DNA from: Planctomycetota bacterium
Lineage (GTDB): Bacteria; Planctomycetota; PLA2
Reading direction: 5' to 3'
Assembly (NCBI GenBank): GCA_021776785.1
Contig: JAJFFF010000001.1
Location: forward strand, 187,129-251,128
Length of the DNA: 64,000 nucleotides
Position numbers and translations under genes: made by a program. The notes beneath the pieces were generated by a model. That model was not told the DNA's origin and did not search any database. It saw only the letters and a program-made list of their open reading frames with translations. Positions 14,582 to 59,305 of this stretch are shown here, in pieces (position 1 is the stretch's first letter; each line of letters begins with the position of its first letter).

Positions 14582-14716
14582 TCCCTGGCTCGTCGGATGG
14601 TATCATTGGTGCACAAGAGGCCCGCGCGCCTCTAACTCGTGTTGTTCCAAAGACTTATCGAATCTACAGATTAGGATCGGTTGGCGGAGCGGCCAGGATC
14701 GGAGTCGGAGAGCATT

Positions 14717-16084: not shown

Positions 16085-16252
16085 GACGTGGTCAGTATAT
16101 CCTTTGGACCAAACGAGGTCGCGGCAAAGGGCGAACTACAGCCCGGGAAACCGCTCTTTGAGCGGGCATATCTGGAGAGCGGGGAGGCCCGATGGCATAA
16201 TCCCGCGCTCTGGGGCCTAGGGTCCCGTTTTGCCCCTCTCAACCACCCAAAA

Positions 16253-21056: not shown

Positions 21057-21059
21057 CGG

Positions 21060-21859: not shown

Positions 21860-21863
21860 ACGA

Positions 21864-23873: not shown

Positions 23874-23876
23874 GCG

Positions 23877-25436: not shown

Positions 25437-25440
25437 CCCC

Positions 25441-33183: not shown

Positions 33184-34452
33184 CTAATCGATTTCGTCCG
33201 GCAGACGCTCCGCGATCAAGTTGTTGATGTGTTCTCGGACGGGCTCGATCTCGATTTGATTGGTGACTTCGCTCGCGAAGGCGCGAACCAAGAGCTTGCG
33301 AGCTTCCGGCGCTCGTACGCCGCGCGCACGCAGATAAAACAGCGCGTCCTCGTCGAGCTGACCGATCGTCGCGCCGTGCGTGCACTTCACGTCGTCGGCG
33401 TAGATCTCCAACTGCGGCTTGGAGTCCGCGACCGCCTCGTTGCTGAGCAGTAAGTTTGAGCTCGACTGCTTGGCGTCGGTCTTTTGCGCGTCGGGGAACA
33501 CGTGGATGTATCCGCTGAACACGCTGCTCGACTGATCGCCGAGGATGCCCTTGTACAGCTCGTGGCTGTCGCAGTGCGGCTTCCGGTGCTCCAGCCACGT
33601 GTGATTGTCAACGTGTTGCGCGTCTCTCGTCAATGAAACGCCGTTGAGCGTCGTGACAATCCCTTCGCCGTCGAGCGCGGCGCGCAGGTTGTTGCGGACA
33701 AGGCGCCCGCCGACGGTCGCGACCGAATTCGTCAACCGCGAATCGCGATCCTGGTGGATGTGCGTCGCCGTAACGTGAAGTGCGTGGTCATTTTCGGTCT
33801 GCAAGCGATGGTGAACGAAGCTCGCGTTGGCGCCGACGATTGTTTCCGTCACCGAGTTGGTGAAGTGCGCTGCCTCGCCGTGCGAGACGTACTGTTCCAC
33901 CAATGTCGCTTCCGCGCCGTCGTCGATCATGAAGAGGTTGCGCGGATAAACCGACTTTTCGGTGCCCACATAGAGCACGTAGAGCGGTTCTTCGATGCGC
34001 GTGCCTTTGGGCACATGGAGAAACGCACCGTCTTCTAGAAACGCCGTGTTGAGGGCGGTGAACGGCTGCGTTTCGGCATCCGCGAACTTCGCCAGACGCG
34101 CGCCGACCAAGTCGGGGTTTTGTTCCAGCGCGTCTTTCAGGCTTAGGAAGGTCACGCCGCTCGGAACGTGCGACAGATCCGCGCGGAAGTGGCCGTCCAC
34201 AAACACGAGTCCGCGGCCGAGGCCGAGTGACTGGGCGTCGGCCGACGCCAACAGGTTGGTCGTGGGGCGTCCCAGCGGCAACGTGAGGTTGGCGATGGGA
34301 GACACATCGGTGTACGCCCATTCCTCCTCGCGGCGCGTCGGGAAGCCGAGCGCGCGGAAGCGATCGATGGCGCGACGCCGCAGCGTCTGCACGGCATCGT
34401 CGCGCCCATCCGCGAACTCATTAAACTTGGTAGCAAAATGCTCGGTGTTCAT
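33184..34452 (-). CDS. sufD: Fe-S cluster assembly protein SufD
   Basis: Between sufC and sufS. C-terminal SufB/D beta-helix signature (LLLSNEAVADSKPQLEIYADDVKCTHGATIGQLDEDALFYLRARG). Confidence 0.85.
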   Translation of the reverse strand: MNTEHFATKFNEFADGRDDAVQTLRRRAIDRFRALGFPTRREEEWAYTDVSPIANLTLPLGRPTTNLLASADAQSLGLGRGLVFVDGHFRADLSHVPSGVTFLSLKDALEQNPDLVGARLAKFADAETQPFTALNTAFLEDGAFLHVPKGTRIEEPLYVLYVGTEKSVYPRNLFMIDDGAEATLVEQYVSHGEAAHFTNSVTETIVGANASFVHHRLQTENDHALHVTATHIHQDRDSRLTNSVATVGGRLVRNNLRAALDGEGIVTTLNGVSLTRDAQHVDNHTWLEHRKPHCDSHELYKGILGDQSSSVFSGYIHVFPDAQKTDAKQSSSNLLLSNEAVADSKPQLEIYADDVKCTHGATIGQLDEDALFYLRARGVRAPEARKLLVRAFASEVTNQIEIEPVREHINNLIAERLPDEID

Positions 34453-34464
34453 CGGTTCTCGCTT

Positions 34465-35223
34465 TTAGCTAGCCGCTCCGGCGAGCTCTTCGACCCAGCC
34501 GTAGCCCTTTTCTTCGAGCTCCAGCGCCAACTCCTTGCCGCCCGACTTCACGATGCGGCCTTGGTGCAACACGTGCACGTGATCCGGCACGATGTAGTTC
34601 AGCAAACGCTGGTAGTGGGTGATGACTAAGAATCCGCGATCCTTGTTGCGGAGACGGTTGACGCCGTCGGCGACGACGCGCAGCGCGTCGATGTCGAGGC
34701 CGGAATCCGTTTCGTCCAAGACGGCGAGCTTCGGATCGAGCACGGCCATCTGGAAGATCTCGTTGCGCTTCTTTTCGCCGCCCGAGAAACCCTCGTTAAC
34801 CGCACGCGACAAGAACTTCTCGTCCATATCGAGCTCTTTGGCTTTCGCCTTCGCGAGCTTTAGGAAATCGATCGCGTCCAGTTCTTCCAAGCCGCGCGCC
34901 TCGCGCACGGCGTTTACGCCCGCGCGCAGGAAGTAGCTGTTGGACACACCCGGAATCTCGACGGGGTACTGGAACGCCAAGAACAGGCCGGCGTGCGCCC
35001 GCGCGTCGGGAGCCATGTCGAGCAGGTCCTGGCCCAAGAAGTCGACGCTGCCTTCCGTGACTTCGTATTGGTCGCGTCCCGCCAGAACGCTGGCGAGGGT
35101 GCTCTTGCCGGACCCGTTCGGGCCCATGATGGCGTGCACTTCGCCCGCGTCGATGGAAAGGTTAATGCCGCGGAGGATCTCTGTGTCCTCGATACCGGCG
35201 TGCAAGTTGCTGATCTTGAGCAT
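34465..35223 (-). CDS. sufC: Fe-S cluster assembly ATPase SufC
   Basis: Walker A (GPNGSGKST), ABC signature (FSGGEKKR), Walker B ([12 protein letters not shown]) and the H-loop are all present. The start at 35223 is 3 nt after the sufB stop. Confidence 0.9.
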
Positions 35224-35225
35224 GA

Positions 35226-36674
35226 CTACCCTACGCTCCCTTCGAGGCTGATCCCCAGGAGCTTTTGTGCCTCGACCGCGAACTCCATCGGGAGCTCGCG
35301 GAAAACCTCTTTGCAAAATCCATTCACGATCATCGAGACGGCGTCTTCTTCCGAGATGCCGCGCTGCGCGCAGTAAAACATCTGGTCTTCGCCGATCTTG
35401 CTGGTCGTGGCTTCGTGTTCGACCTGTCCGGTCTTGTTGCGGACTTCGATGTAAGGAAACGTGTGCGCTCCGCACTTGTCGCCGATCAACATCGAATCGC
35501 ACTGACTGTAGTTCCGCGCGTTCTCCGCCTTGGGCATGATCTTCACGAGCCCGCGGTAAGTGTTTTGCGCTTTACCCGCGGAGATGCCCTTCGACACGAT
35601 CACACTGCGCGTGTTCTTGCCGATGTGGATCATCTTCGTGCCCGTGTCCGCCTGCTGGTAGTTGTTCGTGAGCGCAACCGAGTAGAACTCGCCGACGCTC
35701 TCGTCGCCCTGCAGGATGCAGCTCGGGTACTTCCAGGTGACTGCGGAACCGGTTTCAACCTGCGTCCAAGAGATCTTGCTCTTGAATCCGCGGCATGCAC
35801 CGCGCTTCGTAACGAAGTTGAAGATGCCGCCCTTGCCGTTCTTGTCACCGGGATACCAGTTCTGGACGGTGGAGTACTTGATCTGGGCGTTGTCGAGCGC
35901 CACGAGTTCGACAACGGCGGCATGCAGTTGGTTCTCGTCGCGCATGGGGGCTGTGCACCCCTCGAGATAGCTCACGTACGCGCCTTCTTCGGCGATGATG
36001 AGCGTGCGCTCAAACTGTCCCGTGTTGGCCGCGTTGATGCGGAAGTACGTGGACAACTCCATGGGGCAACGAACGCCCTTCGGGATGTAGACAAACGACC
36101 CGTCGGTGAACACGGCGCTGTTGAGCGCCGCAAAGAAGTTGTCGTTGCGCGGTACGACCGAGCCCACGTACTTCTTCACTAGTTCGGGGTGCTCGCGCAC
36201 GGCCTCGCCGAACGAGCAGAAGATGATGCCCTTCTCTTCGAGCGCGCCCTTAAACGTTGTGGCGACGGACACACTGTCAAACACCGCGTCCACGGCGACG
36301 CCCGCGAGCATCTTTTGTTCCGTGAGCGGGATGCCGAGTTTTTCATACGTAGCGAGCAGCTCGGGATCGACTTCGTCCAAGCTCTTCGGCGCGTTCGTTG
36401 TTTTCGGCGCGGAGTAGTAACACGCCGCTTGGTAGTCGATGGGCTCGTATTGGAGCTGAGCCCAATGGTGGGGCTCCTTCATCTTCTTCCACGCGGCGAA
36501 CGCTTCTAAGCGCCACTGCAGCATCCACTCGGGCTCTTCTTTTTTGGCCGAGATAAAGCGAATGGTCCCTTCGTCAAGCCCGACCGGAGCGGCGTCCGCT
36601 TCGATGTCGGTGACAAAGCCCCATTTGTAATCTTGATCGATCCGCTCTTGGATCGCGTCGTCGGTTGTCGACAT
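35226..36674 (-). CDS. sufB: Fe-S cluster assembly scaffold SufB
   Basis: 482 aa from ATG 36674 ([27 protein letters not shown]...). C-terminal ...[37 protein letters not shown]. Confidence 0.9.
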
Positions 36675-36679
36675 ACCTA

Positions 36680-37117
36680 CTAAACCTCCGCCGTCCGAGA
36701 CGAGAACGACATACCCGACGCCATCTCCGAGAGGGGGATGGCATCGAGCGCGTTTCGAACGGCCTGATTGATTCGTTGCCAGTTGGCGCGCGCCGGACAC
36801 GTTTTCTCGATGCCGCACGGGTCCGCTTCCAAGTCCAAGCACTCCGTGATCGCAATCGGCCCTTCCAGGGCGCACACGATCTCACGCACGGAGATGTTTT
36901 TGGGTTCGCGCGCGAGTGCGTAGCCGCCCTTGACGCCGCGATGCGATGTCAAAAGGTCCGCACGAGCGAGCGCTTTTAAGATCTTGCTCGTGGTCGGAAG
37001 CGGCAAGTTCACCATCTGCGCTAAGTCCCGCGCGTTGTGCACGGCGCTTCGCTCCTTCACCGCAAAATGGGTGAGGATGACGATGGCGTAGTCGGTTTGC
37101 TTGGTGATGCGCAGCAT
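36680..37117 (-). CDS. Rrf2-family transcriptional regulator (IscR/SufR-like, probable Fe-S sensing)
   Basis: The wHTH ([19 protein letters not shown]...) is followed by three clustered Cys ([16 protein letters not shown]). It is the first gene of the suf operon. Confidence 0.8.
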
Positions 37118-37387
37118 GAGTCGAATTCCGGCCCCAAAACCGCCCGTCAGCTCTCTCATGCTGACCCTCGCAGAAGTCGGCGAGGAAAAGAGGATGCTTT
37201 GGGTCCCGTTTCCAAGGGAACCCTATCAGGACCGCTCGAACCGTCAAATTATCGAGGGGCTTGTCGTCCCGACTTCCGAGAAGTCTAATTTCGATAAGTC
37301 CATGACCACAAAGTAGTTATGGAATTAGGACTGGTTAATTCCTCTTTTTGGGGCGCGGGCTTTTCGGGGGATTTCGCGCGGGCGGAT

Positions 37388-38479
37388 CTAGACGCCGGAC
37401 GACCACTCCAGCTGGAACTGTTTCGGGCCGTTTCCGGAGAGTTCATCGACGCGCGCTTTCACGCGGTCGGCGATATCGCCAAACGCCTTCGACGTAGCGC
37501 TCTCGGGGGCTGCGATGACGATCGGTTGACCGGTGTCGCCGCCCGGCGGCACGGCCGGATCGAGAGGGAGTTTGCCGAGCAGCGGAAGGCCGTATTGCTC
37601 GGCGGCTTTTTCGCCGGCGCCGCTCATGAAAATGTCGGTGATCTCACCGCACTTCGGGCACGCAAAGCCCGCCATGTTTTCCACGACGCCGATCACCGGC
37701 ACCTTCACGGCTTTAAACATCTCGATCGCTTTCAACACGTCGAGGAGCGCCACATCTTGCGGCGTGGTCACGACTACCGCGCCATCGAGCGGCACCGTTT
37801 GGCTCAGGCTCAACACCGCGTCGCCGGTGCCCGGCGGGAGATCGACAATCAAGTAGTCGAGTTCGCCCCACGCTACGCCCATCAGGAGCTGCTGCACCAT
37901 CTTGCCGACCATCGGTCCGCGCCAGACGACCGCGGCTTGATCCTTCGGCATGAGGAACGCGATCGAAATGACCGAGATGCCGTGCGTGTCCGCCGGGATC
38001 ACGCGCTGCTGCGCATCGCCGCGCGCTTTGTGACCGATGGTGCCGGTCATGATCGCCGCGCTCGGGCCGTAGATGTCGGCGTCGAGGAGCCCGACCTTGT
38101 GGCCCTTCTGCGCGAGAGCGACCGCCATGTTGACCGAGACCGTGGACTTGCCAACGCCGCCCTTGCCCGCGCCGACGGCGACGATGTGACGAATCGACTC
38201 CTTGAGTGCGGCGCCCGCCGCTTGCGGCGTGGGCGCGCCGCCCGTCCCTTCCCCGGCTTGTTGCGGGGGCTCGGCGAACGAGACAAAGACGTCCTTCACG
38301 CCTTCGATGGCCTTGATCTTCTCTTTGACGCGCCCGGCGAAGGCGGGTTTCTCCGCCAACGGAATCCGCATTTGCACGGTGATGAGAACTTTGCCGGCCG
38401 TTTCCTTAAACCCCGCGATTAGGTTCGGGGCGACGATGCCCTTGAGCGCGGCAGCGACCGCATCCAGTGTGATTGACAT
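37388..38479 (-). CDS. apbC: Fe-S cluster carrier ATPase ApbC/Mrp (NBP35 family)
   Basis: N-terminal DUF59-like domain, deviant Walker A (GKGGVGKSTVSVN) and CPKCG cluster motif. The ATG at 38479 overlaps the upstream stop. Confidence 0.85.
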   Translation of the reverse strand: MSITLDAVAAALKGIVAPNLIAGFKETAGKVLITVQMRIPLAEKPAFAGRVKEKIKAIEGVKDVFVSFAEPPQQAGEGTGGAPTPQAAGAALKESIRHIVAVGAGKGGVGKSTVSVNMAVALAQKGHKVGLLDADIYGPSAAIMTGTIGHKARGDAQQRVIPADTHGISVISIAFLMPKDQAAVVWRGPMVGKMVQQLLMGVAWGELDYLIVDLPPGTGDAVLSLSQTVPLDGAVVVTTPQDVALLDVLKAIEMFKAVKVPVIGVVENMAGFACPKCGEITDIFMSGAGEKAAEQYGLPLLGKLPLDPAVPPGGDTGQPIVIAAPESATSKAFGDIADRVKARVDELSGNGPKQFQLEWSSGV

Positions 38480-39312
38480 CAGACGGAAATCTCCTCGGTG
38501 ATCGCGAAGTCGCGGTCGCCACGATGAACGCGGCACGCGGTGGTCTTCGGGTCGTGTTCGAAAAACAAGATCCACTCCTCGTCCGCAGCGCGGCCGACCC
38601 ACGTCAGCTTTTCTTCCACGGTCTTGAGCGGTTCATTGTCGTACGCCATGACGTACGGCGTGCGTAGGTGCGACGTGGTCGGAACCAGGTCGGCGGTGTA
38701 GAGCAACGACTGCGCGCCGTCGCTCACTTTGACAAGTTGCATGGCGGGCGTGTGCCCGTCCACGGGAAGCACTTCGATGCCGTCGGCGATCTCGGCGCGG
38801 CCGTCGATCAATTCGAGGCGATCCTCGCGATACAGCGGCATGAAGTCGTCGGGCCGAAAACTGCCGCCGTCTTTCAGACTCGGCTCGCGCGCCCACTCGA
38901 ACTGACGACGTTGCACGTGATAGCGCGCGTTCGGAAAGACCGCGTTGCCGTCGGCGCGCGTCGATCCGCCGCCGTGGTCAAAATGCAGGTGTGTCAGCAA
39001 CACGTCGGTAATCGTTGCGGGATCAAACCCGGCGGCTTGCAGCGCGACGTCGGGAAGCATGGTTCCTTGCAGGTTGTAGATGCCGTTCAGCTTGTCGCTG
39101 AACTTGTCTCCGATGCCCGTGTCCACCAGCCATGTGCGGTCCGGCCCCTCGATGAGGAGAAGGCGCATCGCGAGTTCGATCCGGTTGCGTTCGTCAGGCG
39201 GATTGGACCGCTCCCAAAGCGGGCGCGGCACAATTCCCAGCATCGCGCCGCCGTCGAGGCCAAAAAGCCCGCTGGGGATGGAGTGAACGCGATATTTTCC
39301 GATCTGAAGCAC
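38479..39312 (-). CDS. MBL-fold metallo-hydrolase
   Basis: THLHFDHGGG (HxHxDH) with downstream His/Asp ligands. Confidence 0.75.
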   Translation of the reverse strand: MLQIGKYRVHSIPSGLFGLDGGAMLGIVPRPLWERSNPPDERNRIELAMRLLLIEGPDRTWLVDTGIGDKFSDKLNGIYNLQGTMLPDVALQAAGFDPATITDVLLTHLHFDHGGGSTRADGNAVFPNARYHVQRRQFEWAREPSLKDGGSFRPDDFMPLYREDRLELIDGRAEIADGIEVLPVDGHTPAMQLVKVSDGAQSLLYTADLVPTTSHLRTPYVMAYDNEPLKTVEEKLTWVGRAADEEWILFFEHDPKTTACRVHRGDRDFAITEEISV

Positions 39313-48418: not shown

Positions 48419-49330
48419 CTAGCGCGAGACGAGTGTCTGCGCCCACCGTGCAAACTGACGGAGGTCGGAGAAATACTCGATGCCGCGCGGCCCGCGCCGC
48501 GTGCCGCGCGCTCCCACACCGCCGACGACCAACTCGCATGCCGCGGGCAAACTCTGACGGAGCAGAGCCAGCTGGCGATCGGTTTCGATGCCGGCGGACG
48601 AGAGTGAAACGCCGATGCCGACGGCCTTGGCGTCGCATTCCTGCGTGGCGGCGACGGTCTCCGCGATCGGTGTGCAGCGTCCGAGAATATGCGGACGTAC
48701 TCCAACCGTTGTGGCTGCGACCGCACACATCTGCACCCCGAGCCCGTGTTCCTCATCCGGAAGCGTTGCGAGAACGATCGTCGGAGACTTGAATGAGACT
48801 TCGAACTCGCTGCGCAACCGGCGCAAAAAGTCCTGCATCACTTCGGTCACGAAATGCTCGTGCCGAATCTTTAATGTTCCGTCGCGCCAGAGCGCCCCGA
48901 CGCGCGTGAGCAACGGTGCGACTCGCTGATCGAGAAGACGAACAGCTCCCATCGAACGATAGGCGTCTCGAAGCAGCCCGACCAGAGTGATCGCGTCATA
49001 CGTGCGGACCATCTGCACCATCGCCTGGATTTCAGGAGTACTGCTCGACGGTTCCGGATCGGGTTCGCGGGCGACGAGGGCGGCCAGCTCTTCGTCGGAA
49101 GAGCGCACAACTTTCCCCGGGCGGTTGCCGCGCTGCAGAGCCTCCGCAACGCGTCGCAACCACGCGAGGTGATCGTCGTTGTAGCGCCGATGGCCGGACG
49201 GGAGCCGGATCGGAACCGGCTTGCCGTAGCGCCGCTCCCAAACTCGAATCGTGTCCGAGGAGATCCCTGTCGCTTTGGCAAGTTGCCCAATCGACATCAA
49301 GTCAGCGGTGTTCACTTCTGTACTGTCCAT
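48419..49330 (-). CDS. MerR-family regulator with C-terminal cobalamin-binding domain (CarH/LitR-like light-responsive repressor)
   Basis: N-terminal MerR HTH (MSIGQLAKATGISSDTIRVWERRYG). C-terminal B12-binding domain with the DxHxxG motif (LPDEEHGLGVQM). The start is ambiguous: ATG 49330 or 49297. It is divergent from the ybgA-like/photolyase operon. Confidence 0.75.
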   Translation of the reverse strand: MDSTEVNTADLMSIGQLAKATGISSDTIRVWERRYGKPVPIRLPSGHRRYNDDHLAWLRRVAEALQRGNRPGKVVRSSDEELAALVAREPDPEPSSSTPEIQAMVQMVRTYDAITLVGLLRDAYRSMGAVRLLDQRVAPLLTRVGALWRDGTLKIRHEHFVTEVMQDFLRRLRSEFEVSFKSPTIVLATLPDEEHGLGVQMCAVAATTVGVRPHILGRCTPIAETVAATQECDAKAVGIGVSLSSAGIETDRQLALLRQSLPAACELVVGGVGARGTRRGPRGIEYFSDLRQFARWAQTLVSR

Positions 49331-49395
49331 TAATTTCCATGATTGTCCAATAAAAAACATAGACATAGGGCCTGGAGACCGGAACATGACTCGTC
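49300..49395. promoter_or_regulatory. AT-rich divergent promoter/operator region between the CarH-like gene and the YbgA-photolyase operon
   Basis: It contains tgtccattaatttccatgattgtccaataaaaaacatagacatag, which stands out against a ~68% GC background. TGTCCA occurs twice as a direct repeat. Confidence 0.4.
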
Positions 49396-50361
49396 ATGGG
49401 TCTGCAAGTCTCTGGACGACCGCGGTTGGGAATCAGCAGTTGTCTGCTCGGCGAAAAAGTTCGCTTCAACGGTGGTCACAAGCGGGACCGGTACCTCACC
49501 GACACTTTGGGCGCGTTGTGCGACTGGGTCATGGTGTGTCCGGAAGTCGAACTCGGCCTCGGTTCGCCGCGCGAGACGCTCCGTCTGGTCGGTGACCCCA
49601 CGCAGCCGCGGCTACATGAGCCGGCGACCGACATCGATCGGACGCGCGCGATGCATCGGTTTGCCGGTGACCGCGCGCGGGCGTTACGCGTCGAGGGCTT
49701 GCACGGGTTCGTGTTCAAAAAAGACTCCCCAACGTGCGGGATGGCGCGCGTGAAGGTTTGGCACGAGAGCGGCGGCGGATCGGAACGCAAAGGTGTCGGC
49801 CTGTTCGCCGCCGCAGTCATGAAAGCGTTTCCGCTCCTCCCTTGTGAAGAGGAGGGGCGGCTCCATGACATGCCGTTGCGCGAGAACTTTATCGAGCGCG
49901 TGTTTTGCTACCAGCGGTGGCGCGATTCGTTTGACAAGCGCGTGCGTCGCGGAAACTTGGTTGCGTTTCACACGGCGCACAAGCTGACGCTCATGGCGCA
50001 CTCGCCGGTGCGCTACCGAGAACTTGGTCGCATCGTCGCCGCGCTCGGAACGCGTCCGTTGCGTGAAGACATCGATGCGTACGGAGAACAGTTCATGGAA
50101 GCACTTCGACTGCTGGCGACGCGCCGCAAGCACACCAACGTCTTGCAGCACATCGCCGGATACTTCAAACGAAAGATCGACTCCGATGATCGTACCGAAC
50201 TCGCCGGTTGCATCGAGGACTACCACGCGGGAAGCGTGCCGTTGATCGTCCCGCTCACGTTGGTCCGTCATCACCTGCGCCGCCATCCCGACGCCTGGTT
50301 GGAGTGCCAGACTTATCTTCACCCGTACCCGGCGGAGCTCATGCTTCGTAACCACGTATGA
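49396..50361 (+). CDS. DUF523 (TudS-like) + DUF1722 (YbgA-like) fusion protein
   Basis: N-terminal LGISSCLLGEKVRFNGGHK is the DUF523 Cys-rich signature. The C-terminal half resembles YbgA, the gene found upstream of phr in E. coli. It overlaps the photolyase start. Confidence 0.7.
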   Translation: MGLQVSGRPRLGISSCLLGEKVRFNGGHKRDRYLTDTLGALCDWVMVCPEVELGLGSPRETLRLVGDPTQPRLHEPATDIDRTRAMHRFAGDRARALRVEGLHGFVFKKDSPTCGMARVKVWHESGGGSERKGVGLFAAAVMKAFPLLPCEEEGRLHDMPLRENFIERVFCYQRWRDSFDKRVRRGNLVAFHTAHKLTLMAHSPVRYRELGRIVAALGTRPLREDIDAYGEQFMEALRLLATRRKHTNVLQHIAGYFKRKIDSDDRTELAGCIEDYHAGSVPLIVPLTLVRHHLRRHPDAWLECQTYLHPYPAELMLRNHV

Positions 50362-51764
50362 GCCGTTCAACACCGCCTGCGCGCGTGCGCGTCGTACAGG
50401 ATGCGCCGCTCCGGCCGACCGGGGATTTCGTACTGTATTGGATGATCGCGACGCGCCGCACGACGTCGAACTTTGCGCTTGATCGTGCGGTGGAGCACGC
50501 CGCGGCGCTCAAGAAACCGATCGTCGTGCTCGAGCCGCTCCGCGCGGGGTACCGCTGGCGCAGCGACCGGATCGATACGACGCTCGTCGCCGGAATGTCC
50601 GACAACGCGCGTCGCTTCGCGGGCGAGCCCGTGGCGTATTACCCCTATGTCGAGCCCGAGGCCGGTGCGGGCCAGGGGCTGCTCGCAGCGCTGGCGGAGC
50701 GCGCCTGCGTTGTCATCACGGATGACTTCCCGTGCATATTTTTGCCGCGCATGGTGCGCGCGGCCGGCGAGCAGCTGTCGGTGCGGTTAGAAGCCGTCGA
50801 TTCCAACGGAATCGTGCCGATGCGATCGACGCCGGATGCGTTTCCCACGGCGTACTCGTTCCGGCGGTACTTGCATCGGAATCTCTCGCCGTACTTGGGC
50901 GAGGCGCCCTATGCTCGCCAACGTGTGGCCGGCGTGGCTCCGCGCATCGAGCTGCCGCCCGCGGTCGTGAAGCGGTGGCCCCTCGCGTCGCTGGAATCCG
51001 TGCCGCCGCGCGGCGCTACCGCGGCGCAGCAAACGCTCGTCGACTTTTTAGCGCGCTTGGATCGTTACGGCGATGATCGCAACTCGCCGGAAAACGACGC
51101 GACGAGCGGCCTCTCCTCGGCCCTTCACTTCGGCCACATCTCACCGCATGAGATCTTTCACGAACTCGCGGACCAAGAGGATTGGACGCCCGACGATCTG
51201 GCGGACACCGTCAAGGGCAACCGCGCGGGTTGGTGGGGGATGAGCGAATCCGCGGAGGGGTTCCTCGACCAGCTCATTACGTGGCGCGAGCTCGGCTACA
51301 ACATGTGCGTGCACCGACCGGACGACTACGACCGATACGAGTCACTCCCGTCTTGGGCGCAAGTAACACTTGAGGCGCATGCCGGAGACGAACGCGAGTT
51401 TGTGTACACGCTCGAGCAATTCGACACGGCGCAGACGCACGATCCGATCTGGAACGCGGCCCAAACGCAACTCCGCCGCGAGGGGCGCATTCACAACTAC
51501 CTGCGCATGCTCTGGGGCAAAAAGATCCTGGAGTGGACGGCGTCCCCGCGCGACGCGCTCGCCGTGATGATCGAGCTCAACAACAAGTACGCGCTCGACG
51601 GCCGCAACCCAAACTCGTACAGCGGGATCTTTTGGTGCCTGGGTCGGTACGACCGCGCCTGGGGTCCGGAGCGTCCGATCTTCGGCAAGATTCGCTACAT
51701 GAGCTCGGACAACACGCGGCGCAAGTACAAGCTCAAGAGCTACTTGGAAGCGTACAGCTCCTGA
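50358..51764 (+). CDS. phr: deoxyribodipyrimidine photolyase, class II CPD type
   Basis: FVLYWMIATRRTTSNFAL is the class II N-terminal signature. The C-terminal FAD-binding region has RMLWGKKILEW...GIFWCLGRYDRAWGPERPIFGKIRYMS. Confidence 0.85.
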   Translation: MSRSTPPARVRVVQDAPLRPTGDFVLYWMIATRRTTSNFALDRAVEHAAALKKPIVVLEPLRAGYRWRSDRIDTTLVAGMSDNARRFAGEPVAYYPYVEPEAGAGQGLLAALAERACVVITDDFPCIFLPRMVRAAGEQLSVRLEAVDSNGIVPMRSTPDAFPTAYSFRRYLHRNLSPYLGEAPYARQRVAGVAPRIELPPAVVKRWPLASLESVPPRGATAAQQTLVDFLARLDRYGDDRNSPENDATSGLSSALHFGHISPHEIFHELADQEDWTPDDLADTVKGNRAGWWGMSESAEGFLDQLITWRELGYNMCVHRPDDYDRYESLPSWAQVTLEAHAGDEREFVYTLEQFDTAQTHDPIWNAAQTQLRREGRIHNYLRMLWGKKILEWTASPRDALAVMIELNNKYALDGRNPNSYSGIFWCLGRYDRAWGPERPIFGKIRYMSSDNTRRKYKLKSYLEAYSS

Positions 51765-52210
51765 AAGTTGGGGAGGTCCGCGACCGTTTTGTAGTTGTAC
51801 GAGCGGACGACCTGGCCCTGTTCGAGCAGCACTGCGCCCGGCATCTGCCACGGATCCCCGACGGGTTTTCCGGCCCCGTAGCCGGCGAAGATCGCCTTGA
51901 GGCCGCGCCACCAAATCTTTGGATGCAGGATGAGTGAGATCGGGTTGCCGCGTTTCAGTTCGAATTCGCGGTAGATGTTTTTGTCAGGGTCGCTGAAACG
52001 TGCAACATCATCGAGCTTGTATTTCGCGAATAGCTCCCGCGCTTGCTCGTCGGTTCCGAGATGAACGAGGGCGAGACGCACACCGTGCGCCTCCATCGCG
52101 GGACGTTGCGCGGCGAGTGTCGCCAGCGTCTCGCGACAAAACGTTCAGCCGAGGTGGCGCAAGAAGACCGCCAAGACAGGGCCGTCTTCCGACATTTTTT
52201 GAAGTGTCAT
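51740..52210 (-). CDS. candidate selenoprotein: PRXL2/SelU-like (AhpC-TSA_2 family) thioredoxin-fold protein with G-U-T-F-C motif (in-frame TGA at 52147..52145)
   Basis: The track ORF 51740..52096 starts at an internal Met. The frame stays open upstream through one TGA to the ATG at 52210, which overlaps the cfa-like stop (ATGA). Translation gives [52 protein letters not shown]... The Sec sits where PRXL2-family proteins have the first Cys of CxxC (compare the human PRXL2A 'RRPGCFLCRE' segment). A 6-bp hairpin (UGUCGC...GCGACA) lies 6 nt after the UGA. Confidence 0.6.
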
Positions 52211-53241
52211 GCATTTCTCCGGAATCGATAGTGGGCAACGTGCCACTCCTGGCCGTCGCGGTAGCCGAACAGTTCCGCGCACGCCAAAAAAAACATGCGC
52301 CATCGCGCGAACCAGCGCGCCGCCGAATTCGCGCCGTAGCAGTCGGCGAAAACAGGCATTACGCGTTCGCGTTCGCGGTCAAGGTTGCGCAACCAGTGTT
52401 CCGACGTCTTTTGGTAGTGAATTCCGTTGACGAACCACCGATCCTCGAGCGCGAGGTCGCGATCGAAGCTCGGGAGCAGGTCGTAGTCCGGCATGAGACC
52501 GCCCGAAAAGAAGTGACGGCCCATCCAGTTGCTCGGGCCATCCGTCTCGAACGGATACGTGAACTGCTTGTGGCAAAACACGTGCACGAACAACCGGCCG
52601 TCCGGACGCAGCCACGACGCTACGCGTTGCATCAACGTTTGGTAGTTACGGACGTGTTCAAACATCTCGACGCTGACGACGCGGTCAAACACCTGTCCGG
52701 GTTCGAACGCGTTGACGTCGGCGGTCCGCACGTCGATCGACGTGACCCCGCGCGCTTCGATAAATCGGCGCTGTGGCGCGGAGTTGGAAACGGACACGAC
52801 GCGGCAGTTCGGAAAGTGCTCCGCGATGTAGAGGGAGAGCGATCCCCAGCCACAGCCGAGATCCAACACGTCCATCCCGTCCTCGATGCCCGCGCGTTCA
52901 CAAGTCAGGGCGAGCATCGCTTCCTCCGCTTCGTCCAGCGTGTGCACACCGTCCGGGTAGTAGCACGAGCTGTATTTCAGCCGCTTTCCCAGCGCGCACT
53001 GGAAAAACTGCGAGGGCACTTCGTAGTGCTGCTCGTTGGCCTTTTCGGGAACGAGCGCCACGGGGCTTGCTTTGAGGCCGCGCACGAACGCTGCGCGCTC
53101 GCCGGGGGTGCGTCCGAGCTCATCCGATAGACGTTCGCGGATCAGCCGGCGAATGCCCCAGCGCAACATCGGTGTCGGGACGAGGCTCCGCTCGGCGAGG
53201 GATAGACCGATGGCGCTCACGCGTCCTCCTTGGGAGGCCAT
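52207..53241 (-). CDS. cyclopropane-fatty-acyl-phospholipid synthase family SAM-dependent methyltransferase (second, divergent paralog)
   Basis: [24 protein letters not shown]...[17 protein letters not shown] is the Cfa/mycolic-acid synthase fold. The start is uncertain (ATG 53241 or 53169). The track ORF extends to 53424. Confidence 0.75.
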
Positions 53242-53987
53242 GGGAAAAACACGCTCGTTGTTTCCTGGTAGCGGCGGTAGTCTTCGCCGCGACTCTTGAG
53301 CGCTTGTTTTTCCGTGTACGGGATGCCGGTTAGGCGGAACAAGAACAGAAACATCAGAACCGGGCCGAGCCAAGTCAATAGGTGTCCGCCGCCGATACAC
53401 ACGTACGCGAACCAGTGGGTCCACTCAAAAAAGTAGTTGGGATGCCGTGAGTAGCGCCAGAGTCCCGCGCGACAGGTCTTGCCTGGATGTTGCCGGCGCC
53501 AGCGCGCGAGTTGCTGGTCTGCGACCATTTCCCCGGCTACCGCGATCACGGCGACGGCAGCGCCAACGTAGTCCCATCCGTCGAGCGGACCGGCGCGCCC
53601 CATGGCTGCATAGAACACGAGCGAAAACAGGACGGCGACAACGGCCTGCCCTTGGTAGAACACGAAGAAGTACAGCGGCGCGCGCTCGCCCCAGTGCTCG
53701 CGCATTGCGCGGTAGCGACCGTCTTCTTTAGCCTCGCCGCGGACGCGGTTCCAAAAGAGGTGCAAAAACAAGCGTCCGGCCCAGGCAGCGGCGATTACCG
53801 CTACGAGTGTGCGGCGCGCGAGCTCACCTTCACGAAGCGCGGCGTAGAGTACGGCCAACGCGCCGAGGGCGAACGCCCAAGCGGCATCCACGCTTGTGGC
53901 GTTCCTGGTTCGGAGTTGGCGCGCCCAAAGCGCGGCCATGCCCAAGCCAACGCCCAACAGCCCCCAGAGAGGCAGGAGCCAACTCAT
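53217..53987 (-). CDS. DUF1295 family membrane protein (steroid 5-alpha-reductase/ICMT-like fold)
   Basis: Multi-TM protein. [21 protein letters not shown] is the DUF1295 signature. The ATG at 53987 overlaps the cfa stop (ATGA). Confidence 0.7.
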
Positions 53988-55243
53988 CGCAGTCTTCCCG
54001 CGAGCGATGATTCGGGGCGCTCCCATACGAGGTGCTGGGTACCGATGAACCGCTCGTCGAATCCGCCCTCGCAATACGCGAGGTAAAACTCCCACATCCG
54101 CAGAAACAACTCGTTGTAGCCCAGTGCGCGGATCGCCTCGATGTGCGTATGAAAGTTCCGGCGCCACCGGCGCAACGTTTCGCCGTAGCTCGGCGTTAAG
54201 TCAAACACCTGCGTCGGAGCGAGGTCCGTGCGCTTCGCGGCCGCTTGCATCAGGACCGTGACAGATGGAATGCAGCTCCCAGGGAAGATGAATTTCTTGA
54301 TGAAATCCACGTCGTTTTTGCACTCGTCAAAGTAGCGGTCGCGGACCGTGATGGATTGCAAGAGCATCGCGCCGTCCCGTCGGAGAAGTTGCTCGCAGGT
54401 TTCGAAAAACGTCGCGTAGTAGCGGTGGCCAACCGCTTCAATCATTTCGATCGACACGATTTTGTCGTACGTCCCCGAGAGATCTCGGTAGTCGCGCAGC
54501 AAGACCGTGACGCGATCCGAGAGACCCGCGGCTTCCACGCGCGCTTTCGCGAGGTGGAGCTGCTGTTCAGAAATCGTCGTTGTCGTCACGCGGCAACCAT
54601 GGCGTTGCGCCGCGTGGATCGCGAAGCCACCCCAGCCGGTTCCGATCTCCAGCACATGGTCGTCTTTGCCGATCTGCAGCGCGTCGCCGACGCGGTCGTT
54701 CTTGTTGCGCTGCGCCTCCGCGAGCGATTCACGCGCGTCTTCGAACAACGCGCACGAGTACGTCATCGATTCGTCCAGAACGAGCCGGAAGAAGTCGTTG
54801 CCGATGTCGTAATGCGCAGCGATGTTGCGTTTGGCGCCGCGTCGCGTGTTGCGTCGCAGCGTGTGCGCCGCGCGCAAGAGCGGTTGGACCAAGCGCGCAG
54901 CGCCTCTCTCCATTCCGTTCATTACGTCACGGTTCGCGACAAACGCTCGGACGAGCGCGGTGAGGTTGTCGACGTCCCAGAGCTTCTCGAAGTACGCCTC
55001 GGCCGCCGCGTTGTGTCCCCCGCGCACGACGCGACCGTAAAACGCCGCGTCGTGGACGGTCACAGCCGCCGTGCGTTCCGCCGGAGCGTCGGCCGAGCCG
55101 AACGTCGTGGTACCGTCCGGATCGGTCCACACGATGTGGCAATCACGAAGCGCGTCCAAGCGCCGGAGGAACGCTCGTCGCGCCCAGCTTCCCAGCAAGC
55201 GGACGTGCTGTATCTCGTGTTCGCGTAAGACGGCGGATTTCAT
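53984..55243 (-). CDS. cfa: cyclopropane-fatty-acyl-phospholipid synthase (Cfa-type lipid methyltransferase)
   Basis: AHYDIGNDFFRLVLDESMTYSCALFE, VLEIGTGWGGFAIHAAQRHGCRVTTTTIS and YDKIVSIEMIEAVG are present. The start is at ATG 55243; the track ORF carries a 199-aa spurious extension. Confidence 0.85.
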   Translation of the reverse strand: MKSAVLREHEIQHVRLLGSWARRAFLRRLDALRDCHIVWTDPDGTTTFGSADAPAERTAAVTVHDAAFYGRVVRGGHNAAAEAYFEKLWDVDNLTALVRAFVANRDVMNGMERGAARLVQPLLRAAHTLRRNTRRGAKRNIAAHYDIGNDFFRLVLDESMTYSCALFEDARESLAEAQRNKNDRVGDALQIGKDDHVLEIGTGWGGFAIHAAQRHGCRVTTTTISEQQLHLAKARVEAAGLSDRVTVLLRDYRDLSGTYDKIVSIEMIEAVGHRYYATFFETCEQLLRRDGAMLLQSITVRDRYFDECKNDVDFIKKFIFPGSCIPSVTVLMQAAAKRTDLAPTQVFDLTPSYGETLRRWRRNFHTHIEAIRALGYNELFLRMWEFYLAYCEGGFDERFIGTQHLVWERPESSLAGRLR

Positions 55244-55968
55244 CGAACGGTCCTCGGATGCGGGATGAAAGGAACGCGCTTCAGGCGTAACCGAAGCGCT
55301 TGCCAGTAAATCGCTGCGGTGATACGCAGCGTCAGGAAAGGCCACCGAACAAGCGCCCGCGCGAGCGAGCCGCCCGTGATCGGGCGCCGCTTTAGACTCA
55401 GCGTGGCTTCGAAGTGCGTCGCGTCGTCGCGCACGTTTTCCATATGCACGGCGAGGCTCTCGTCCGGCGTCGAGAACGCCCAGTCGCACCGGTAGTTCAT
55501 GTCGAGGAACGGAGAGACGTGAAACTCCTTGCGGAAGCGGCCGCGCAATCCGTCCAAGACATACGTGTGGCGTTCGTTCCACGGCGTGTTCGTGATCTCG
55601 GCGCACAGCGCCACGACGCGCTTTCCCGCGTCGTCGAAACAGTAGTAGAACGTTACGGGGTTGAAGCAGTAACCGAACAACCGCAGATTCGTCAGCATGC
55701 GGATCGGTCCCGTCGGTCGGACGCCGAGCTTTTTTTCCACGACATCGCGCACGCACTCCGAAAGCGGCTGCTTCGGATGGCCCAGGTAGTCTTTGCGCCG
55801 AAACCACGCGAGGTTGAAACGGCGGGCCGACCAGAGCCAACGGCGGTCAAACACCTGCGGTAGCTCGTCGAGATCGAGATAGAGTTGGTAGAGGCAATAG
55901 CGAAAGGCGTGCGGTTTCGGGATGTGTCGCTCGTGGTCCACGGTGCCTTCGTAGATCGCGCTATGCAT
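55240..55968 (-). CDS. DUF1365 family protein
   Basis: SAIYEGTVDHERHIPKPHAFRYCLYQLYLDLDE... fits DUF1365. This family is typically found with Cfa and FAD amine-oxidase genes. Confidence 0.7.
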   Translation of the reverse strand: MHSAIYEGTVDHERHIPKPHAFRYCLYQLYLDLDELPQVFDRRWLWSARRFNLAWFRRKDYLGHPKQPLSECVRDVVEKKLGVRPTGPIRMLTNLRLFGYCFNPVTFYYCFDDAGKRVVALCAEITNTPWNERHTYVLDGLRGRFRKEFHVSPFLDMNYRCDWAFSTPDESLAVHMENVRDDATHFEATLSLKRRPITGGSLARALVRWPFLTLRITAAIYWQALRLRLKRVPFIPHPRTVR

Positions 55969-57202
55969 GCACCGGCTCCAACGCGCGTACGACGCGCAGA
56001 GCGCTATTCACGCCATCTTCGTGGAAACCGTTGAACCAATACGCCCCGCAGTAGTGCGTGTTGCGAGAACCGCTGATCTCGGACCAGCGCTGCTGGGCGG
56101 CGATGCTTTCCGTGGTGAACAACGGATGATCGTACGTAAAGCGTCGCAGCACCTTGTCGGGTGCGATCGCGCCGGTTCGGTTGAGTGTGACGAGGAACGG
56201 CGCGTGCGACGGCAGCGACTGCAAGATGTTGAGGTTGTAGGTGACTGTGGCGCGAGACGTGTCCGGCTGCACGTGATAGTTCCACGCGGCCCACGCTCGC
56301 CTTACGCGCGGCATCAGCGTTTGATCCGTGTGCAGCACGACGTCGTTGGATTGATAGGGCAGCGCTCTGAGGATGTCTCGCTCGTCCGGCGACGGGTCGC
56401 GGAGCAGCCGCAACGCCGCGTCGCTGTGTGTGGCGAATACGACGTGGTCGAATCGTTGCGACCCCGCGGCCGTCCGTACGTCGACGCCGCTCGCGGTGCG
56501 TGCGACGGCGACGACGGGCGTGGACAGACGAATTCGATCCGTGAACGGGCGCGTGATGGCGTCCACGTAGCGGCGGGACCCACCGCGGACGACGCGCCAC
56601 TGCGGGCGTTCGTCTACCGAGAGCATGCCGTGATTCTGAAAAAAGCTCACGAAGAACCGCAATGGAATTTGCAGAAAGCGCTCCGGATCGGTGGACCACA
56701 CCGCAGAACCCATCGGCACCAGGTAGTGCTCGACGAAACGGCGTCCGTAGCTGCGCTCCTTGAGAAATTCGCCGAGGGTCGCGGGCGCTGACGCGTCCCC
56801 GATCGTCGCCGGCGCTTCGCGGTGAAATCGCAAGATGTCACGGATCATCTTGAGGAACGACGGCCGCATCAGGTTGCGCCGCTGCGCGAACATCGTGTTG
56901 AGCGACGTGCCGTTGTATTCGAGACCGGTCTGTTCGCAGCGCACCGAGAAACTCATCGCGGACGGTTGGGAGGCGACGTCCAACTCGTCTAGAAGCGCGA
57001 TGAAGTTCGGATACGTCCAGTCGTTAAACACGATGAAGCCGGTATCGACGTCGTAGGATCTTCCGTCCTGCGCAACCGTAACGGTGGCCGTGTGACCGCC
57101 GACGTAGTCGTTGGCTTCAAACAGAGTGATGTCGTGGGCCTTGTGCAGGTGGTGCGCGGCGACGAGGCCCGAGATGCCGGTCCCGATGATCGCAATGCTC
57201 AC
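55961..57202 (-). CDS. FAD-dependent oxidoreductase (flavin amine-oxidase/phytoene-desaturase-like)
   Basis: GTG 57202 gives VSIAIIGTGISGLVAAHHL, a Rossmann dinucleotide motif. It overlaps the desaturase stop (GTGA). Confidence 0.8.
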   Translation of the reverse strand: MSIAIIGTGISGLVAAHHLHKAHDITLFEANDYVGGHTATVTVAQDGRSYDVDTGFIVFNDWTYPNFIALLDELDVASQPSAMSFSVRCEQTGLEYNGTSLNTMFAQRRNLMRPSFLKMIRDILRFHREAPATIGDASAPATLGEFLKERSYGRRFVEHYLVPMGSAVWSTDPERFLQIPLRFFVSFFQNHGMLSVDERPQWRVVRGGSRRYVDAITRPFTDRIRLSTPVVAVARTASGVDVRTAAGSQRFDHVVFATHSDAALRLLRDPSPDERDILRALPYQSNDVVLHTDQTLMPRVRRAWAAWNYHVQPDTSRATVTYNLNILQSLPSHAPFLVTLNRTGAIAPDKVLRRFTYDHPLFTTESIAAQQRWSEISGSRNTHYCGAYWFNGFHEDGVNSALRVVRALEPVHA

Positions 57203-58134
57203 CGGCTCGCCTCGCGGACGCGCGGAGGAACGTCGTTGAGGTCGCGAATGATCCCCAGCCACGACAACACGACGAGCCCGTAGTAAGTGATGTCGATCTC
57301 CCACCACCAAAAGCCCTGGCGTACAGAGCCGGGGTAGTGATGGTGGTTGTTGTGCCAACCTTCGCCGAGTGTCAGGACGGCGAGCCAAAAGCTGTTTCTG
57401 CTGTCGTCGTCTGTGTCGTAGCGACGTCGGCCGACGGTGTGGGCGAGCGAGTTGATGGCACTTGTCGCGTGAAACAGAGCGACCGTCGAGATCCCAAACC
57501 CCCAGACCACGAACTGCATGCCGCCCGTCGCGTAGAGAGCGACGACGAGCAATCCCGGCGCAACCGTGTCAAAACGGTCGAGCCAGCGAAGCTCCGGGTA
57601 GCGAGCGAGATCAGGCACCCGGCTCAGATCGGTACGGAAGTTCTTGCGCGACGTGAACCAGCCGACGTGGCTCCAATAAAACCCGTGTTCATGGGGAGAA
57701 TGGACGTCTGCGGCCTCGTCGGAGTGGCGGTGGTGGTGCCGATGATGGGCCGCCCACCAAAGTGGACCCCGCTGCGCGGACATGTTGCCCACGACGGCGA
57801 AACAGAACTGGGCTACGCGCCCGGTCCGAAATGTCCGATGGGAGAAATAGCGGTGATAAAAGCCGGTGATGGCAAACATGCGGACGACGTACAGTCCGAT
57901 GGCGACCCAGAGCGCCGGCCAACTCCAGCCCACCCATAGGACGCCGAAGCAGAGGACATGGAGGAGGACGAACGGGATGCACCGAAGCCAATCGTCCACT
58001 CTGCCCTCGTCGTGCTCGGCCGGTCCCGCCTGGGAGTCGAACCAACGGGCGACCGCGAGCCCGGTTCGTCGCAACGCACTTCGCCTTGCCGTGGGCGCTG
58101 GCAAGCGAGTTCTAGGACGAGTGGAGAGAGGCAT
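57199..58134 (-). CDS. membrane acyl-lipid/acyl-CoA fatty acid desaturase (delta-9-type, di-iron His-box family)
   Basis: Three His boxes are present: HRYFSH, HHRHHHRH, HNNHHH. Multi-TM. The annotated start overlaps the divergent TlpA-like start and may lie further downstream. Confidence 0.85.
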   Translation of the reverse strand: MPLSTRPRTRLPAPTARRSALRRTGLAVARWFDSQAGPAEHDEGRVDDWLRCIPFVLLHVLCFGVLWVGWSWPALWVAIGLYVVRMFAITGFYHRYFSHRTFRTGRVAQFCFAVVGNMSAQRGPLWWAAHHRHHHRHSDEAADVHSPHEHGFYWSHVGWFTSRKNFRTDLSRVPDLARYPELRWLDRFDTVAPGLLVVALYATGGMQFVVWGFGISTVALFHATSAINSLAHTVGRRRYDTDDDSRNSFWLAVLTLGEGWHNNHHHYPGSVRQGFWWWEIDITYYGLVVLSWLGIIRDLNDVPPRVREASR

Positions 58135-59305
58135 GTTCGAGCGAATCTATCGAAATGATGCTGTCGCGTCCCGGCCGCGCCGTACCCTGTGGCGCGTGAA
58201 AACCTGGATTTTGCCGACGATGGCCCTTGCAATCGTCGCAGGGTGTCGTTCGTCGTCAAATGCGCAGCAACGGTTTGAGACTAGTTACGCCGCATACCAA
58301 GCGGATGGATTCAGCGATCGGGAGATGGCCCGTCTTTCGAAACAGGCTGTGGCGGTCGCCGAGAGTGATGGAATCTCTGATGAGGCGCGTTTCGATACGC
58401 TGTTGCGGGCCGCACGAGCCACGTCTGAGGGCGGCTCGTACAAGCGTTCGCGTAGGGCTCGAGGCCGGATTTTCCCCGCGCTCCTCCGGCTTAGCCGCCA
58501 TGACGATCACCGTCTTGCCCAGGTGATTCAGGCTCTGTCCCACCTCGGGAGATTCGATCCGAGCGAGGCGAAAAAAGAAGAACAAGAATATGTCCAATAC
58601 TTGGACAAAGTCGCCGCCGTGGGACCCGTCGAGTGGGTGCAGCCCGCTGTGGCCTGGGCTCGGGCGCATCACCGCGTCGCGCGCGATCTGCATGTCGAGC
58701 CGATCAGCGAAGCCGAGCGTGCGGAGACGCGCGAGTGGATTAAGTTGAGCTACCGCGGTTGCGAACACCTGCCGGACTCGCAGTGGGCGTCCGACGTCCG
58801 CCAGTTCTGCAGCCGTTCGATGAGCCAACTCGACCAGTTGGTCATCGGGCGGCCCGCGCCCGAGATTGCGTCGCGCGATTTCTCGGGGCGTGACCTGCGG
58901 CTATCCGAATACCGCGGCAAGATTGTCGTCGTTTCGTTTTGGGCGACCTGGTGCAAGCCGTGCATGGCCAAGTTCGACGATCAACGCGACCTCGTCAACG
59001 CGATGCAAGGCAAGCCGTTCGCGCTGCTGGGTGTCAACAACGATCGGGATGCAGCGCGTGCGCGGGCTGTGGCAGGCAACGGCAAATTGAACTGGCGCAA
59101 CTTCCGCGACGACCCGGAAGCCGGGGCGGGCGAGTGCGCCGACGCCTTCGCCGTGCGCATGTGGCCGTCCGTTTTCGTCCTCGACGCCGAGGGCGTGGTG
59201 CGCGCGATCAACCCGCGCCGCGACGACCTGTGGGACATCTGCAAATCGCTGGTGGCTGAAGTTGAAGATTCCCACCCGATCGCGGCGGCCGCCGGCAGCG
59301 ACTAG
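58133..59305 (+). CDS. TlpA-like thiol:disulfide oxidoreductase lipoprotein (thioredoxin fold, WCKPC)
   Basis: Lipobox LAIVAGC. Trx motif VVSFWATWCKPCMAKF. The start is uncertain: ATG 58133 gives a long pre-lipobox leader. The track ORF starts at 57866, inside the desaturase gene. Confidence 0.75.
   Translation: MFERIYRNDAVASRPRRTLWRVKTWILPTMALAIVAGCRSSSNAQQRFETSYAAYQADGFSDREMARLSKQAVAVAESDGISDEARFDTLLRAARATSEGGSYKRSRRARGRIFPALLRLSRHDDHRLAQVIQALSHLGRFDPSEAKKEEQEYVQYLDKVAAVGPVEWVQPAVAWARAHHRVARDLHVEPISEAERAETREWIKLSYRGCEHLPDSQWASDVRQFCSRSMSQLDQLVIGRPAPEIASRDFSGRDLRLSEYRGKIVVVSFWATWCKPCMAKFDDQRDLVNAMQGKPFALLGVNNDRDAARARAVAGNGKLNWRNFRDDPEAGAGECADAFAVRMWPSVFVLDAEGVVRAINPRRDDLWDICKSLVAEVEDSHPIAAAAGSD

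Follow-up and report, generated by a model that had tools for sequence, protein, structure and literature searches.

The question raised by this locus is whether a TGA triplet in an otherwise uninterrupted reading frame marks the end of a gene or is read as selenocysteine (Sec). The DNA analyzed is a stretch of 64,000 nucleotides (nt) from a Planctomycetota bacterium (contig JAJFFF010000001.1, positions 187,129 to 251,128), referred to here at its full length as the window. The frame in question lies on the minus strand and runs from position 52210 to a stop codon at 51742..51740, with the TGA at 52147..52145 as the sole in-frame stop before that end. An earlier note on this DNA had described this frame as open up to the ATG at 52210..52208, had pointed out that this ATG overlaps the stop of a cfa-like gene as ATGA, and had quoted a read-through translation. 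Reading the sequence confirmed the open frame and its single stop, the overlap was found as described (TGA 52209..52207), and the translation was reproduced as given. The core claim of that note, that a selenoprotein with the AhpC-TSA_2/PRXL2 fold is hidden here, is supported by comparison with homologues, in which the TGA falls in a cysteine column and recurs as TGA. We consider it very probable, on the strength of these comparisons of sequence, that 52210..51740 (minus strand) encodes one 156-residue thioredoxin-fold oxidoreductase of the SelL-related/PRXL2 kind, in which UGA would be decoded as Sec and a U-T-F-C centre would be placed at the N-terminus of helix alpha1.

A TGA flanked by long open frames, with a cysteine codon three residues off, means little in itself. 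The window has a G+C content of 63% and holds 18 such cases, and the bare pattern is no more than chance would give in 64 kb. It is homology across the TGA that sets 52147..52145 apart from these. Full-length homologues are about 180 residues long and carry an invariant L-R-H-x-G-C-x-x-C, usually in the form FLRHxGCTFCRE. The U-T-F-C codons of the window occupy 52136..52147 on the minus strand, and the TGA stands on the first cysteine of the motif. TGA is also the commonest ordinary stop codon in the window. Because it ends 19 of the 45 ordinary genes there, the genetic code is taken to be the standard one, and an alternative code with UGA as Trp or Gly was ruled out.

The same TGA is found in relatives. 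Among the proteins retrieved by the search were eight seemingly shortened homologues of 105–131 residues (P0001, P0013, P0021, P0061, P0070, P0075, P0094 and P0095; P0001 is a shortened database entry of 113 residues), and all seven that could be read at the DNA level have a TGA in the same column, in frame after ...PVL.VFLRHxG. Metagenome contigs were then scanned with a DNA pattern for FLRHxG-TGA-xFCRE, which gave at least 120 loci, nearly all of them homologous frames open on both sides of the TGA. Among the matches listed, about 23 are orthologues of the window protein (at least 39% identity), and about 65 (within L089-L208) form a very abundant soil-metagenome subfamily with FLRHYGUIFCREHVAQLREHE, for example L092, L095, L097 and L099. 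The motif of this subfamily can be written as FLRHYG-U-[IV]FCREHVAQLREHE, and it belongs to the same superfamily as the window protein. The nearest relatives of the window are all TGA forms. The column holds TGA in L004, L005 and L006, which have 59–65% identity to the window protein, and in L007 and L008, which are low-G+C relatives at about 40%. It also holds TGA in L001, a Logan assembly of SRR15505517 that is identical to the window, TGA included; L001 may share reads with the source genome and is to that extent weak as independent confirmation. Orthologues with cysteine have TGC or TGT at this codon in 80 of 80 loci, as expected because the scan pattern required Cys. In a neighbour-joining tree of low resolution, at least six groups made up wholly of TGA forms lie among the Cys-form orthologues, and the window groups with L004, L006 and L096.

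The family and fold of the product were assigned with U replaced by C. The 156 residues match NCBIfam NF040769, "SelL-related redox protein", over residues 3–154 at 129.7 bits (curated cut-off 120), and Pfam PF13911, AhpC-TSA_2 (PRXL2-type), at 43.6 bits (gathering threshold 27). The classical peroxiredoxin family PF00578 (AhpC-TSA) scores 24.4 bits, just under its gathering threshold of 26. The redox motif is of the CxxC/UxxC type and not TxxC/TxxU. Of the proteins with a solved structure, human prostamide/prostaglandin F synthase PRXL2B (9us9) is the one most similar in sequence (E = 1.9e-4); its LRRFGCVVCR aligns with LRHLG-U-TFCR of the window, so that U22 and C25 fall on C44 and C47. We modeled a Cys homologue, P0002, which is 52% identical to the window protein, by AlphaFold (AF2; predicted local distance difference test score 95.2). 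In this model a strand (residues 31–35), Cys41 and a helix (42–60) make up the segment corresponding to the part of the window gene upstream of its annotated start, and the cysteine equivalent to U sits at the start of the helix. The closest solved fold to the model is again PRXL2B (template modelling score 0.69–0.75), followed by PrxQ/BCP and ResA. The fold proposed earlier and the placement of Sec at the first redox cysteine both agree with these results; the curated family label is SelL-related rather than SelU, which the earlier note had suggested.

Gene callers report the locus as a shortened open reading frame that begins at Met39 (Table 1). In the P0002 model, beta1, most of alpha1 and the redox motif all correspond to sequence upstream of this start, so the 118-residue product would be without them. 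It is quite unlikely that such a product is the true one, made by reinitiation at Met39 as a separate protein working without a redox motif, or that UGA is read through without Sec by near-cognate insertion of Cys or Trp. Such a reading would agree with the 113–118-residue product given by gene callers and public records and with the weakness of the SECIS (selenocysteine insertion sequence) evidence weighed below. Against it, the closest relatives, L004-L006, have Ile at the place of Met39, and no Shine-Dalgarno-like element comparable to the GGAG before the upstream start lies ahead of the internal ATG at 52096. The shortened protein would be a thioredoxin fold deprived of beta1, alpha1 and the CxxC/UxxC motif, TGA is the commonest true stop in the window, and a UGA recurring at a catalytic Cys column is a recognised signature of Sec/Cys pairs (PMC1088965). 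The earlier note had also considered that orthologues might begin at the Met of 52096 without the upstream redox segment; what we found is the Ile at that residue in L004-L006, and conserved residues upstream of it. The upstream start has further features of its own. Its overlap with the preceding stop suggests translational coupling to the methyltransferase gene, and an MTL... start directly after a methyltransferase gene is also seen in L002-L006.

A pseudogene, meaning that TGC or TGT changed to TGA in a gene that has lost its function in this organism or is losing it, is very improbable, even though a single base change would suffice. Gene decay is real in this clade and counts against Sec decoding: L002 and L003, the same sequence in two separate assemblies, keep FLRHFG-TGA-TFCR and then have a frameshifting deletion of 31 nt just past the motif (L002:1369..1400). 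L005, a TGA-form orthologue that is otherwise intact, has an in-frame TAG 11 codons past the UGA (L005:432..434), which may be an error, the coverage of that contig being only about 1.5x. Against a pseudogene stand at least 120 diverged homologues that have TGA at this codon and frames intact on both sides. The 21 residues of the window before the TGA are conserved as well (across 21 orthologues, the last 14 of them before U show 61% identity), nothing is damaged in the start codon, the Shine-Dalgarno-like element or the ATGA coupling, and a second gene of the window has the same TGA/Cys pattern. A one-base sequencing or assembly error, conceivable in a metagenome-assembled genome when the one other copy, L001, may go back to the same reads, is hardly credible given TGA in the same column of relatives at 59–65% identity and beyond, from independent samples and other studies.

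We therefore return to Sec decoding, for which the second gene is of interest. This candidate selenoprotein on the plus strand has a TGA followed by PPC, and its homologues have CPPC at that place; the homologues read FAYFTRSYAPCPPC in this region. The hairpin after its UGA is clean, UUGAGGGC-GGU-GCCCUCAA. The earlier note had held that two UxxC-at-TGA cases in one window favour Sec decoding, and the homologues of this gene bear that out. Since two Sec/Cys pairs lie within 64 kb, the sequences argue for a selenocysteine-using organism. By SufD similarity the DNA comes from an uncultured member of the Planctomycetota, with all named best matches in that phylum and at no more than 61% identity. 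From this phylum there are reports of complete sets of sel genes and of AhpC/TSA, peroxiredoxin and thioredoxin-like genes in Sec form (PMC4807772). Apart from the question of decoding, the second candidate ends in a Cys-rich (G[DE]GC)n repeat (12045..12152, plus strand), which may bind metal; a similar tail is present in homologue P0103.

In bacteria the SECIS is a stem-loop directly after the UGA, with a small apical loop that typically contains a guanosine (PMC1088965). In what follows, hairpin positions are counted from the U of UGA. The 6-bp hairpin UGUCGC/GCGACA proposed in the earlier note is present and perfect in the window, but it is not conserved; overall 70.8% of cells pair, with L005 and L006 poor, and it was rejected as a conserved element. 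Folding of the region after the UGA gave instead a longer hairpin, +11..+53, common to the four closest TGA forms, with the group consensus GUCGCG-A-GACGCUG ... C.NCGUC-C-CGCGAU. In these four forms 92.3% of cells pair, compared with 25–60% when the partners are slid. The apical loop lies 25–26 nt past the UGA (around 52117..52119), the same spacing as in the second candidate of the window. Compared with synonymous shuffles of the codons, the segment +9..+54 is unusually stable in L004 and L006 (p < 0.001) and in L005 (p = 0.028), and no 45-nt stretch of the gene is more stable than the +11..+53 region. What L002/L003 have lost with their 31-nt deletion is precisely the part lying inside the GUCGCG/CGCGAU stem. 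That fits hairpin-mediated slippage, on anecdotal evidence, and the deletion may be taken either in this way or as the mark of a decaying gene.

A number of results weigh against the proposed decoding. The +11..+53 hairpin shows no compensatory double changes and no covariation, 8 of its 13 pairs being invariant, and its minimum-energy apical loop, CAC, has no guanosine; an alternative 8-nt loop does have one. For the window's own +9..+54 segment the synonymous-codon shuffle is marginal (p = 0.053), and 10% of control windows in neighbouring genes reach an equal z; the shuffle has low power, as even the clean 8-bp hairpin with a GGU loop in the second candidate gives p = 0.09–0.31. The 66 nt past the UGA fold no better than dinucleotide shuffles (z = -0.8), and at this position the folding energies of TGA-form and Cys-form orthologue groups do not differ (p = 0.31). 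Rfam returned nothing relevant, either at the gathering threshold over the whole window or at E up to 10 over 52000-52260. RNAalifold found no consensus structure for all of the approximately 22 TGA-form orthologues, and their hairpins, if any, vary by clade. Finally, selA, selB, selD and tRNA-Sec were not found within the 64-kb window. We regard the SECIS evidence at this gene as no more than suggestive.

Other clades of the superfamily have hairpins of their own. The soil subfamily has a conserved CGCGC-AGUU-GCGCG hairpin, its loop starting about 25 nt past the UGA. A subclade of orthologues (L152, L188, L115, L121, L195, L148, L176 and L122) keeps GAG GCG GUC GCC GAG at codons +5..+9 at the nucleotide level. 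These codons can fold, 17 nt past the UGA, into GGC-GGUC-GCC with tandem G·A pairs on either side, a structure that resembles the SECIS loop of E. coli fdhF.

Table 1. Coordinates of the candidate selenoprotein genes, their proposed signals and the neighbouring genes in the 64-kb window (ORF, open reading frame; FAD, flavin adenine dinucleotide; SAM, S-adenosylmethionine)
Feature	Position	Strand	Remarks
Predicted SelL-related/PRXL2-type redox protein, coding sequence	51740..52210	-	156 codons including one UGA; NF040769 and PF13911 matches
Start codon ATG	52208..52210	-	ATGA overlap with TGA stop 52207..52209 of upstream CMAS-like gene
Shine-Dalgarno-like GGAG	52217..52220	-	6 nt 5' of ATG 52210
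In-frame TGA, proposed Sec codon (residue 22)	52145..52147	-	First position of U-T-F-C; aligns with Cys of homologues
Candidate SECIS hairpin, +11..+53	52095..52137	-	GUCGCG-A-GACGCUG ... C.ACGUC-C-CGCGAU; RNAalifold consensus of four closest TGA forms
Shortened ORF reported by gene callers	51740..52096	-	118 aa from Met39
Second SAM-dependent CMAS-like fatty-acyl methyltransferase	52207..53424	-	PF02353, E = 1.4e-39; start uncertain
DUF1295 membrane protein	53217..54167 (ORF limit)	-	PF06966, E = 1.1e-59; start probably near 53980
Cyclopropane-fatty-acyl-phospholipid-synthase-like methyltransferase	53984..55240	-	PF02353, E = 6.5e-82; ORF to 55840, start probably near 55240
DUF1365 protein (UfaO domain)	55240..55968	-	PF07103, E = 9.7e-82
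FAD amine-oxidase-like oxidoreductase, UfaD-like by domain	55961..57388	-	PF01593, E = 2e-29; start probably near 57200
Fatty-acid desaturase, probable first operon gene	57199..58134	-	PF00487, E = 1.6e-19
Photolyase-related gene, convergent	50358..51764	+	Weak PF03441 match; 25-nt 3' overlap with selenoprotein candidate gene
DUF523+DUF1722 gene	49396..50361	+	Cys form with SPTCG
CarH-like regulator (MerR + B12-binding)	48419..49387	-	
Second selenoprotein candidate	11088..12155	+	Signal peptide and Thioredoxin_7; TGA 11307..11309, FAYFTRSYAP-U-PPC
Hairpin of second candidate	11326..11344	+	8-bp stem, GGU loop starting 25 nt after UGA

The candidate gene is the last of a minus-strand operon whose domain content, as judged by Pfam matches, concerns fatty-acid modification (Table 1). 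The gene set of furan fatty-acid operons, DUF1365 together with a FAD oxidoreductase and a SAM-dependent methylase (PMC7380195), is present at the domain level. A light-related cluster (48419..51764) adjoins the operon and consists of the CarH-like regulator, the DUF523+DUF1722 gene and the photolyase-related gene; a photolyase-related neighbour is also found at L001 and L006, and the DUF523+DUF1722 family is listed with Sec forms in a 2026 review (PMC13188914). The contig with P0070 has the identical order of six genes, with the CMAS-like methyltransferase directly upstream of the TGA-form gene, and the same methyltransferase is directly upstream of the TGA-form gene in L002-L005. By contrast, only 5 of the 80 Cys-form orthologue loci have UfaD, DUF1365 or CMAS genes within 8 kb. 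The operon link is therefore recurrent yet lineage-specific, and the 75 Cys-form loci that have no such genes within 8 kb count against the explanation preferred here.

What the protein would do can be sketched from its fold, its U-x-x-C centre and the analogy with PRXL2B, by which we infer a selenolate-based reductase of lipid hydroperoxides or endoperoxides, or else a redox partner of the operon enzymes. Translation would be coupled to that of the upstream methyltransferase gene via the ATGA overlap, and a SelB-type factor would be recruited by the hairpin starting about 10 nt past the UGA (52137..52095). The selenolate would attack a peroxide or disulfide substrate, Cys25 would resolve the intermediate as a selenenylsulfide, and a thiol reductant would then reduce the selenenylsulfide. 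PRXL2B reduces a fatty-acid endoperoxide. Because this closest solved relative acts on an endoperoxide and the gene ends a furan-type fatty-acid operon near CarH-like and photolyase-like genes, the preferred substrate may be a lipid hydroperoxide or endoperoxide arising from light or singlet-oxygen damage to unsaturated or furan fatty acids. Alternatively, the protein may supply reducing equivalents to the enzymes of the operon.

A more specific proposal is that the protein serves the furan/cyclopropane fatty-acid pathway as its own redox partner, either the missing reductant of a UfaO-type enzyme or a reductase of singlet-oxygen-derived lipid or furan endoperoxides. We think this unlikely. 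UfaO contains DUF1365 and uses O2 to form the furan ring, UfaD is a desaturase of the FAD type, and the reductant on which UfaO draws is described as unknown (PMC7380195). For the operon of R. sphaeroides, no effect on the fatty-acid profile could be detected for its three genes besides ufaD and ufaO (PMC7380195), which is a point against the main explanation given above. If the specific proposal is true, the protein would be a bacterial counterpart of the endoperoxide-reducing prostamide/prostaglandin F synthase that relies on selenium for speed when exposed to light stress.

Some further neighbours may be described. The commonest conserved neighbour of the SelL-related gene is a different FAD amine-oxidase-like oxidoreductase of 423 residues, found at 24 of 102 loci (L009-L088 and the TGA-form loci); a membrane protein of 152 residues, which has no Pfam match, occurs at 20 loci of the same set. 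Both are about 1–1.7 kb downstream of the SelL-related gene and share its strand. In the window, a gene divergent from the operon (57866..59305, plus strand) encodes a 479-residue protein with a C-terminal AhpC-TSA/Redoxin (TlpA-like) domain, and it overlaps the 5' end of the desaturase open reading frame, so that one of the two starts must be over-extended. Elsewhere there are a nuo-like NADH dehydrogenase run (15554..26949, judged by gene sizes and one Oxidored_q6 match), a block with SufB/SufD and a NUBPL-type ATPase (33184..38602) and, separate from this block, a cysteine desulfurase with Fe-S assembly genes (13409..15052).

Thioredoxin-fold UxxC selenoproteins that interconvert with Cys forms are well established, and one more will not surprise specialists; what gives this one some interest is only that it closes a furan/cyclopropane fatty-acid operon. 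A Sec-dependent thiol-type reductase at the end of a light-linked fatty-acid operon would be a testable candidate for filling the gap left by the reductant of UfaO (PMC7380195). The annotation itself also matters. Public records hold this gene and many like it as fragments of 105–131 residues without an active site, and as a result the fold, the function and the selenium-use trait are misjudged in an uncultured Planctomycetota lineage and in many soil and freshwater bacteria.

Of the known systems, the nearest is the SelL-related family NF040769 itself, with which the window protein shares the FLRHxG-[C/U]-xFCRE motif, the length and the fold. Cys forms of this family are widespread in Acidobacteriota, Planctomycetota and Verrucomicrobiota, whereas in the window the first Cys codon is replaced by UGA. 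The window protein also differs from most members in an N-terminus shorter by about 20 residues, and its gene differs from theirs in ending a fatty-acid-modification operon. PRXL2B (PDB 9us9 and 9usa) is eukaryotic, only about 20% identical and equipped with Cys instead of Sec. The vertebrate selenoproteins SelU (PRXL2A group; UxxC) and SelL (UxxU) have a thioredoxin fold with Sec first in the redox motif, as the window protein would have, but they use eukaryotic SECIS elements in the 3' untranslated region, unlike the window gene. SelL is a peroxiredoxin-like protein that also occurs in bacteria (PMC2398784).

The operon compares best with the furan operon of R. sphaeroides, RSP1091-1087, with which it shares, as a likeness at the domain level, the FAD oxidoreductase, DUF1365 and the methyltransferase similar to cyclopropane-fatty-acid synthase (PMC7380195). 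Both operons have links to genes for stress by light or singlet oxygen, photolyase among them, and the singlet-oxygen regulon of Rhodobacter includes furan fatty-acid genes and photolyase (PMC6852236). The regulator beside the window operon is CarH-like (MerR and B12), while that of Rhodobacter is sigmaE/ChrR, and the account of the Rhodobacter operon names no peroxiredoxin-like gene (PMC7380195).

Among bacterial selenoproteins, the 'Prx-like' UxxC proteins are the closest in kind. These distant relatives of peroxiredoxins were described by Zhang, Fomenko and Gladyshev in 2005 (PMC1088965), in the Global Ocean Sampling survey of 2008 (PMC2398784) and in the 2026 review (PMC13188914), and they were counted as bacterial selenoproteins in the Sargasso Sea and Global Ocean Sampling surveys (PMC1088965, PMC2398784). 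The table of the 2026 review does not list NF040769, and its sole entry for cd02970 (PRX_like2) has a UxxS motif (PMC13188914). Like the 'Prx-like' proteins, the window protein is distant peroxiredoxin kin with a thioredoxin-like UxxC, Sec/Cys pairs and a candidate hairpin past the UGA. Likened to them by class description rather than to an exact published family, the window gene belongs in kind to the thioredoxin-fold UxxC class known since 2005, mis-annotated here as a shortened open reading frame.

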